From the NCBI RefSeq assembly GCF_044324875.1, contig NZ_CP172185.1: 64,000 nucleotides of DNA; one strand, given 5' to 3'. Positions 12,301 to 15,300 of this stretch are shown here, one piece after another. The position numbers were made by a program. Within the stretch, counting starts at the first letter, position 1; every line of letters starts with the position of its first letter. The stretch is from Escherichia coli (GTDB lineage: Bacteria; Pseudomonadota; Gammaproteobacteria; Enterobacterales; Enterobacteriaceae).

Positions 12301-15300
12301 CAAAGTAGTGTAACCCGGTGCTGTTGGATACTGCGCGCGAGGGGTGTGGTAATACTCCCAGGCCTGACGCAGTTCTTCGTTCGGCGCATCGGACTCCTTC
12401 ATTGGTGCCAGTGGCATGGTGGCGTATTCTCCGCTGCTAATATCGCTGGTTCGGGCGTTTGAACCCGCGTCAACGTATGGTAGGGCATCAATAGATTTCA
12501 CATTGTTTTCCCAACCATTACGGAACATCGAACCAATATTGACCGCACTAACAGTACCGATGGCCTTGATGCGGCGATCCTGAATTGCAGCATTGGCTGT
12601 ATATCCTGCACCGGCACAAATTCCCATCGCACCAATTCGGCTATTGTCGACATAAGAAAGCGTTGTCAGATAATCAATCACGGCACTGACGTCTTCAGTA
12701 CGAATGTATGGGTTTTCTAACTGACGCGGCTCGCCGCCGCTTTCACCCTGATAAGATGCGTCATAAGCAATAGTGACAAATCCCTTTTCCGCCAGTTTTT
12801 CGGCATAGGTTCCAGCCGTTTGCTCTTTAACGCCCCCACCTGGGTGAGATACCACAATTGCCGGATACTGACGGGTTTCATCAAATTTTGGAGGGAAATA
12901 GATCACTGCAGACAAAGAGATGGTTGGATTATTGCTGTTAGTGAAGCTGACTTTATTATTCATCATTCCGTTCCTCATGGAGTTGTCGGTTCGTTTTGAC
13001 GGTTGGTGATATCACTATAGATATTGATCATTAAGTTGATTAGACCCTAAATAATGATTAGACCTATCATTTAAATGATTAATAGATTGTATGGAGATAC
13101 TGAATGAAGCGTGAAGAAATCGCTGATCTGATGGCGTTTGTCGTCGTTGCAGAGGAGCGTAGCTTCACTCGCGCAGCAGCCCGCCTGAGCATGGCGCAGT
13201 CAGCTTTAAGCCAGATAGTGCGCCGTATAGAAGAACGATTGGGATTGCGGCTTCTGACGCGAACCACGCGCAGCGTTGTACCCACTGAAGCGGGCGAGCA
13301 TCTTTTGTCTGTTCTTGGCCCTATGTTGCATGACATAGATTCTGCCCTGACATCCCTGAGCGATCTGCAGAACCGCCCATCCGGGACAATACGTATTACT
13401 ACTGTAGAACATGCAGCAAAAACGATATTGTTACCAGCTATGCGCACATTCCTGAAATCGCATCCTGAAATTGATATCCAGCTTACCATTGATTATGGTT
13501 TGACCGATGTCGTTTCTGAACGTTTTGATGCAGGCGTCCGTCTGGGTGGGGAGATGGATAAAGATATGATCGCCATTCGAATCGGGCCAGATATACCAAT
13601 GGCTATTGTTGGCTCACCGGATTATTTTTCTCGTCGAAGTGCTCCAACGTCAGTGTCACAATTAATAGATCATCAGGCAATTAATTTGTATCTTCCCACA
13701 TCGGGTACAGCAAATCGCTGGAGATTAATACGCGGTGGACGTGAAGTTCGTGTTCGCATGGAAGGTCAGCTTTTACTGAATACGATAGACCTGATCATTG
13801 ATGCTGCAATTGATGGGCATGGATTGGCGTATCTACCTTATGATCAGGTTGAGCGGGCTATTAAAGAAAAAAACTGATACGTGTTTTGGATAAATTCACA
13901 CCAGATTTACCCGGTTATCACCTGTACTATCCACACCGTCGACATGCTGGCTCGGCATTCTCATTATTTATAGATAGGCTGAAGTATAAAGGTGCTGTTT
14001 AGCACTACTTGCTGATACATTAATTTAATTCTTCTCTTAACGCATTCTCAGTTTCTTTCAACGTTTTGGTTATTTTTTATTCTTCGTACAATGGCGACAG
14101 ATGCTGATTATGATACCGAAAACGGGTTTGAACGTGCGAAGCCCGAACGTAGTGTTCGGAGTTCTATGTGCTTTACCGCATTTTGGAGACTATTATTTAC
14201 ACTAAATCTGATTTGATATATTGATACTTAAAACATTTGATGCTTCCTTTGTCACTTTTTTGATGGAAGTTGTTTGCATTTCTTTAAGGCGAAACAAATA
14301 ATTACGCATCAATTTTAATGTCGGTTAGAGGGAAACTTATGAAGCACTCTGTTTCAGTCACGTGTTGTGCGCTGTTGGTCAGCAGCATTTCTCTTTCGTA
14401 TGCTGCTGAAGTTCCGAGCGGCACAGTACTGGCAGAGAAGCAGGAGCTGGTGCGCCACATTAAAGATGAGCCAGCGTCGCTGGATCCCGCTAAAGCCGTG
14501 GGCCTGCCGGAGATACAGGTCATTCGCGATCTGTTTGAAGGACTGGTGAATCAGAACGAGAAAGGGGAGATTGTCCCCGGCGTTGCGACTCAGTGGAAAA
14601 GTAATGACAACCGTATCTGGACTTTTACCCTGCGCGATAACGCAAAATGGGCGGATGGCACACCGGTAACGGCGCAAGATTTTGTCTACAGCTGGCAACG
14701 TCTGGTGGACCCAAAAACATTGTCGCCATTTGCATGGTTTGCCGCGCTGGCGGGAATCAACAACGCACAGGCGATTATTGATGGTAAAGCCACGCCTGAC
14801 CAGCTTGGCGTCACCGCAGTTGATGCCCATACTTTGAAAATCCAGCTTGATAAACCGTTGCCGTGGTTTGTGAATTTAACCGCTAACTTTGCCTTCTTCC
14901 CGGTGCAAAAAGCCAACGTAGAAAGCAGTAAAGAGTGGACGAAACCCGGAAAACTGATCGGTAATGGCGCTTATGTTCTTAAAGAGCGCGTAGTCAATGA
15001 AAAACTGGTCGTGGTACCGAATACCCATTATTGGGATAACGCCAAAACGGTGCTGCAAAAAGTGACCTTCCTGCCAATTAATCAGGAATCCGCAGCCACT
15101 AAGCGTTATCTCGCGGGGGATATTGATATCACCGAATCCTTCCCGAAAAATATGTATCAGAAGCTGTTGAAGGATATTCCGGGGCAGGTTTATACGCCGC
15201 CGCAGCTCGGGACCTATTATTATGCGTTTAACACGCAAAAAGGGCCGACGGCCGATCAGCGTGTTCGCCTGGCATTAAGTATGACGATAGATCGCCGCCT

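Follow-up and report, generated by a model that had tools for sequence, protein, structure and literature searches.

The pgrR locus and its surroundings

The window, a stretch of 64,000 nucleotides from Escherichia coli (contig NZ_CP172185.1 of assembly GCF_044324875.1), carries the genes ycjG, mpaA, a full-length SDR gene (ymjC), ycjY, the divergently oriented pgrR, and mppA, in this order (Table 1). PgrR is the present name of YcjZ, a LysR-family regulator of 299 amino acids that acts in peptidoglycan recycling (PMC4797297, PMC5210515). In E. coli K-12, it is described as a LysR-type repressor of peptidoglycan-peptide recycling genes in the work of Shimada et al. (2013, Genes Cells 18:123), as cited in PMC4797297 and PMC5934670. 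Its top SELEX site in K-12 lies between ycjY and ycjZ, and the regulon listed for it comprises ycjG, ycjXF-tyrR, and ycjY-ymfDC-mpaA, the last in the source's own spelling (PMC5934670). The pgrR promoter is also repressed by PgrR itself (PMC10505187).

The identity of the gene follows from both its sequence and its position. Its DNA equals the intact pgrR of the nearest relatives (WP_000817700.1) except in one run of adenines, RefSeq names it pgrR, ‘DNA-binding transcriptional regulator PgrR’, and the exact 299-aa sequence obtained by repairing the run is present in the protein collection under the name PgrR. It lies divergent from ycjY-(ymjC)-mpaA and upstream of mppA, as in the annotation of 10 complete genomes. 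The initial annotation, made from the sequence alone, had named the gene ycjZ and regarded it as the local regulator of the ycjY/ymjC module; the name is borne out by these comparisons, and the proposed role agrees with the gene order and the literature on PgrR.

The region between ycjY and pgrR contains exact copies of TGATTAGACC at 13037-13046 and 13055-13064, as well as a 19-nt imperfect inverted repeat with arms at 13022-13040 and 13066-13084. Judged by their sequence, these copies and the repeat are candidate PgrR operator elements. A private SNP lies between the two copies at 13053, where the window has A and the four relatives compared have T or C. This second change at the PgrR regulatory node might be linked to the loss of the repressor.

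The SDR/NmrA-like gene that separates mpaA from ycjY is full-length in the nearest relatives as well. In many other genomes, among them those of strains 2013C-4991, CV839-06, 14EC007, H6, and NT1F10, it is annotated only as a 138-bp remnant (‘NAD-dependent dehydratase, incomplete’).

Table 1. Features of the pgrR locus in the window (coordinates are window positions)
Feature	Position	Strand	Remarks
ycjG, L-Ala-D/L-Glu epimerase, intact	9378..10343	+	PgrR regulon member (PMC5934670)
mpaA, murein tripeptide amidase, intact	10318..11046	-	
SDR oxidoreductase (ymjC/ymjD equivalent), full-length, 212 aa, intact	11337..11975	-	
ycjY, alpha/beta hydrolase, intact	12046..12966	-	Heads the PgrR-repressed ycjY-ymjDC-mpaA operon (PMC5934670)
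Divergent ycjY-pgrR intergenic control region	12979..13103	.	TGATTAGACC twice and a 19-nt imperfect inverted repeat
Truncated pgrR (ycjZ) frame	13104..13877	+	ATG at 13104, 257 codons and premature TGA
A7 homopolymer in pgrR (A8 in the intact allele)	13867..13873	+	One A deleted here
0-frame A_AAA_AAC heptamer resulting from the deletion	13868..13874	+	Identified by codon phasing
Out-of-frame pgrR remnant with native TAG (14000..14002)	13874..14002	+	Last 42 PgrR residues (LIRVLDKF...KYKGAV)
Premature stop TGA of pgrR	13875..13877	+	Directly after the A7 run
mppA, murein tripeptide-binding protein, intact	14339..15952	+	Downstream neighbour of pgrR

Truncation of the PgrR reading frame

The pgrR frame ends, as had been noticed earlier, immediately after the run of seven adenines, with the 0-frame codons GCT ATT AAA GAA AAA AAC TGA and a product that terminates in ...KEKN after 257 amino acids. 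From 13874 onwards, a different frame encodes LIRVLDKFTPDLPGYHLYYPHRRHAGSAFSLFIDRLKYKGAV*, the expected LysR C-terminus. Its end had been placed at 14001, one base short of the last base of the native stop codon. This remnant shows zero base differences from the relatives that carry A8, and insertion of one A into the run yields an ORF of 900 nt encoding a LysR-type regulator of 299 amino acids, exactly as predicted in the initial annotation. A chance interruption of an open reading frame is excluded, as the in-frame A8 68-mer occurs exactly in 3,957 complete E. coli genomes.

Pfam searches of the truncated product recover the N-terminal winged HTH typical of LysR-type regulators (LTTR) (PF00126, HTH_1, residues 7-65, E = 1.2e-21), and the frame encodes this domain together with about 80% of the LysR substrate-binding domain. 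In the repaired protein, HTH_1 occupies residues 7-65 and LysR_substrate residues 90-294. The truncated product spans only positions 2-166 of the 209-position LysR_substrate profile, against 2-205 in the repaired protein; positions 167-205 are thus lost and the C-terminal domain is incomplete. The role of the lost segment was judged from these Pfam matches and from PDB alignments. Homologues with solved structures (3mz1, 3szp/3t1b, 5x0n, 5fhk) align up to residue 292, and the lost segment is therefore part of the conserved fold. As the intact protein and these homologues reach approximately residue 292-299, orthologues do not naturally end at the shorter length.

In LysR regulators, the C-terminal segment completes regulatory subdomain I and aids oligomerisation. 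For this reason, the 257-aa PgrR is most likely inactive or unstable, as far as its sequence allows a prediction. Some residual DNA binding is possible, since the HTH and the linker are intact.

Possible leaky reading at the A_AAA_AAC heptamer

The deletion has created a sequence that might allow part of the lost protein to be made. The A7 allele could be leaky rather than null, if a −1 ribosomal shift at A_AAA_AAC, or the addition of an A by RNA polymerase, led to some full-length PgrR. The heptamer conforms to the slippery pattern X_XXY_YYZ in the 0 frame, and the phasing GAA AAA AAC TGA is such that a −1 shift at exactly this point would restore the PgrR frame. A shift in the P site only would be expected to give the wild-type PgrR sequence, and a tandem shift would give the substitution K257N. 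There is precedent for such behaviour: A_AAA_AAC is a proven case of frameshifting without an established stimulator (PMC4066793), −1 shifting at C-AAA-AAA occurs in E. coli without designed stimulators (PMC1851650), and an efficiency of 0.3-1% is cited for the −1 frameshift of IS1 (in PMC1851650).

Against these precedents, heptamers without stimulators yield just 2-10 times the background of 0.055% (PMC4066793), and selection against transcriptional slippage becomes evident from runs of about 9 nt (PMC1088944). The features that accompany programmed frameshifting are also missing around the heptamer. The 86 nt after the slip site fold with −12.4 kcal/mol (z = +1.17), no better than shuffled sequences, and inspection by eye of the upstream side revealed no canonical SD-like element; no stimulatory element was thus identified. 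Nor is a two-frame arrangement conserved, given that about 99% of the exact-match genomes carry the single-ORF A8 form, and the motif is an accidental, unconserved product of the deletion. By analogy with the published cases, the slip site could restore at most about 1% of full-length PgrR. A leaky allele is hence a possible but rather doubtful reading, and a truncated, non-functional repressor is the preferred one.

Genuine mutation or assembly error

The initial annotation had left two explanations side by side, namely a sequencing or assembly error in the homopolymer and genuine inactivation. If the missing A were an error, the strain would truly be A8 and its pgrR intact. The nearest complete relatives are compatible with such an error, as all of them carry A8: O169:H41 Res13-Lact-PER13-34 (8 SNPs per 10 kb) and MEI003 (11 SNPs per 10 kb) carry an unbroken pgrR, and over 10 kb no indel other than the A-run separates the window from the nearest of them. 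Under-calling of A8 as A7 is, moreover, typical of long-read-only and 454 assemblies. Several long contigs that encode the 257-aa product are indeed error-prone, with 5-33 gaps per approximately 15-19 kb and many split genes, which indicates that A8→A7 is also a common sequencing artefact.

The surroundings of pgrR in the window do not have this character. No other homopolymer indel was found against the same relative in window positions 1..25770, about 25.7 kb, and no other gene is broken among the eight neighbours in 9000..19000, all of which encode intact proteins with the same sequences as their counterparts in the nearest A8 relative. Within the 10 kb around pgrR, these eight identities left no protein that could mark the lineage, and no complete genome with the window's haplotype across pgrR and its promoter was found. 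Lineage markers were then taken from farther out, using Ogt and YcjX. The Ogt allele of the window (19637..20149, minus strand) is rare, occurring in four contigs only and in one gene context. One contig sharing it, the 58-kb contig in the Logan assembly of run ERR1512459, carries A7 and matches window positions 9634..30149 with 100% identity over 20,516 bases, with 0 mismatches and 0 gaps. The draft genome GCA_044684255.1 likewise carries A7 on a 66-kb contig that is 100% identical to window positions 1..15962 (15,962 bases, 0 gaps).

Because two independent assemblies identical to the window carry A7 and no other homopolymer indel is present, a genuine mutation is favoured. The frameshift is very likely a real, recent, and inherited change of this lineage, as the matching assemblies suggest, and a sequencing error is improbable. 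The three identical assemblies could share one isolate or even the same reads, and a systematic platform error would then be possible. As a matter of method, this case illustrates that independent assemblies of the same lineage can show a homopolymer frameshift to be real even when the nearest complete relatives disagree.

Further observations on the window and its nearest relative concern regions away from pgrR. Positions 43038..51731 are absent from the genome of the nearest relative and match an autotransporter-domain gene beside ydbL in other strains, though only as two separate segments that account for 76% of the query. Parts of this region recur at tens of sites per genome and on many plasmids; it therefore probably contains at least one IS element interrupting the autotransporter. 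Positions 32786..34007, probably the ompN porin region according to their position in the annotation of the relative, show many small indels and low identity. This segment gives the impression of a recombined or hypervariable allele of a surface protein and not of a sequencing error. In its syntenic region, the nearest relative NZ_CP062824.1 has a frameshifted DHA2-family MFS efflux gene (its locus 4617..6072) and a ynbB with an internal stop (its locus 15966..16862).

Distribution of the A7 allele among E. coli genomes

The census of alleles relied on queries shorter than 100 bases, for which the band of at least 99% identity amounts to an exact match; a 121-base query is unable to tell A7 from A8, as one gap still leaves at least 99% identity. 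The norm in the species is A8, found as an exact 68-mer in 3,957 complete E. coli genomes. The A7 form, as an exact 67-mer, occurs in 49 of the 5,232 complete genomes with any match, a count that is a lower bound, as ETEC1701 (A7 with a nearby SNP) falls outside it. The A9 form, as an exact 69-mer, is present in 6. Among genomes with an exact match to any of the three forms, A8 accounts for about 99% and the off-states together for about 1%. This is the comparison with other E. coli alleles that had been proposed at the outset. A scan of species-representative genomes with the pattern GGGCTATTAAAGN{6,10}CTGATACGTGTT gave no match, perhaps, as a guess, owing to a SNP in the flank of the E. coli representative.

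All inspected A7 copies are flagged by RefSeq/PGAP as a ‘pgrR, frameshifted’ pseudogene. Across 1,538 index blocks of the protein collection, at least 1,000 contigs encode the exact 257-aa product, and the longest such contig measures 2-200 kb in most blocks. The product has been deposited as EGI33122.1 and under other entries, and E. coli DEC1B, DEC2D, and TA143 are among the strains concerned. The A7 allele of pgrR is thus already known and annotated, and represents an ordinary, recurrent inactivation.

Two further observations concern the A7 genomes. In E. coli O157:H16 98-3133, the adjoining ycjY (locus 2185..3130) is also annotated as frameshifted, which leaves both pgrR and the first gene under its control broken in that genome. 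In addition, pigs, pork, or pig farms are the source of 18 of the 49 complete exact-match A7 genomes, and the nearest relative of the window is a pig isolate too; this could reflect clonal sampling, as several single-study sets are included, or an association with the host.

Recurrent slippage at the A8 run

The A7 form occurs on at least nine distinct pgrR nucleotide haplotypes among the loci fetched, which identifies the A8 run as a recurrent site of replication slippage. Some of these haplotypes have SNPs within 20 bp of the run on both sides (13847, 13850, 13879), and the A7 backgrounds are 20-95 SNPs apart over 4.5 kb. A tight group formed by 14EC007, 98-3133, and NT1F10 differs by only 1-2 SNPs, and in several cases all isolates of a set from one study carry A7. 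Read from these haplotypes, the history of the run appears to be one of recurrent replication slippage followed by ordinary vertical inheritance.

An intergenic terminator run of eight thymines at 29156..29163 was used as a near-neutral control. The window has only two 8-base homopolymers, the T-tracts at 29156..29163 and 34061..34068, both located right after GC-rich hairpins (intrinsic terminators). At the control run, T8 was present in 5,151 complete genomes and T7 in 11-14, of about 5,165. By odds ratio, the contraction from A8 to A7 in pgrR is 4.6-5.8 times commoner than that from T8 to T7. Interpretation of this excess as a sign of selection was rejected, since clonal sets are numerous among the A7 genomes and their copies inflate the A7 count.

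Slipped-strand mispairing, suggested in the initial annotation, is therefore supported as the mutational origin, with A7 on at least nine haplotypes and A9 in existence, but not as a programmed phase switch. The proposal that the run is a contingency (phase-variation) locus, through which mispairing turns PgrR reversibly on and off, can appeal to the two off-states, to the several haplotypes, and to a contraction about 4-6 times commoner than at the intergenic T8 control, but is very improbable: about 99% of the exact A7/A8/A9 genomes keep A8, the run is only 8 bases long whereas typical contingency tracts are longer, single-study sets that are all A7 suggest that the allele is stably transmitted and does not switch rapidly, clonal copies swell the excess over the control, and no reversion was observed. 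In a phase-variable locus, the tract would be hypermutable, and on and off lengths would both be common and would switch reversibly within lineages; the actual counts are 3,957 for A8, 49 for A7, and 6 for A9.

Consequences for the PgrR regulon

Taken together, these results make it highly probable that the window carries a genuine and recent loss-of-function allele of pgrR, arisen by slippage in the A8 run, with derepression of the regulon as its presumed outcome. In the proposed sequence of events, replication slippage shortened the A8 run, which lies close to the 3' end of pgrR, by one A. Translation now reads ...KEKN and halts at the TGA when 257 codons have been read. The product is thus 42 residues short at its C-terminus, a loss of about one fifth of the LysR substrate-binding/oligomerisation domain. 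An inactive truncated PgrR would in turn relieve repression of ycjY-ymjC-mpaA, ycjG, ycjXF-tyrR, and the pgrR promoter. The genes under this control are all intact in the window. Derepression of ycjY-ymjC-mpaA, ycjG, and the pgrR promoter is likely, although both this step and the loss of repressor activity are inferred. The A7 lineage would then probably express murein-peptide recycling genes constitutively.

A bolder proposal is that the A8 run serves as a soft spot for repeated, adaptive loss of the repressor, while A_AAA_AAC keeps up a trickle of full-length PgrR. This is improbable; if true, murein peptides would be taken up and degraded constitutively (ycjY-ymjC-mpaA, ycjG), the pig gut being one possible setting. 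In practice, the appropriate label for the gene is pgrR pseudogene (frameshifted), a matter of little importance beyond annotation. A more general caution concerns phylogenetic reasoning: one A8 run yields the same pseudogene repeatedly, and shared pseudogenes should be counted as common descent with care.

Comparison with known systems

The window agrees with PgrR of E. coli K-12 in locus, synteny, and HTH_1 plus LysR_substrate architecture. It differs in being one A short of A8, with a product of 257 aa that lacks the C-terminal 42 residues. The frameshifted pgrR copies of RefSeq (for example those of 2013C-4991, ETEC1701, CV839-06, 14EC007, RM7190, H6, 98-3133, and NT1F10) share the identical A8→A7 lesion and stop, but they lie on other nucleotide haplotypes than the window, whose nearest complete relatives are A8. 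By this comparison of haplotypes, the deletion in the window is taken to be independent of the events in those strains.

The insA-insB' arrangement of IS1 resembles the A7 allele in having the same heptamer, the same phase to the downstream frame, a nearby 0-frame stop, and no established stimulator. In contrast to IS1, the pgrR site is accidental and unconserved, bears no sign of use, and has an expected efficiency of 1% or less. The contingency loci of Neisseria, Haemophilus, and Campylobacter likewise contain a coding mononucleotide run in which a change of length means off, on several backgrounds. Unlike these loci, which serve surface or restriction functions, pgrR encodes a metabolic regulator, its run is short (8 bases), and its off-state is confined to about 1% of genomes and apparently stably inherited in related isolates.
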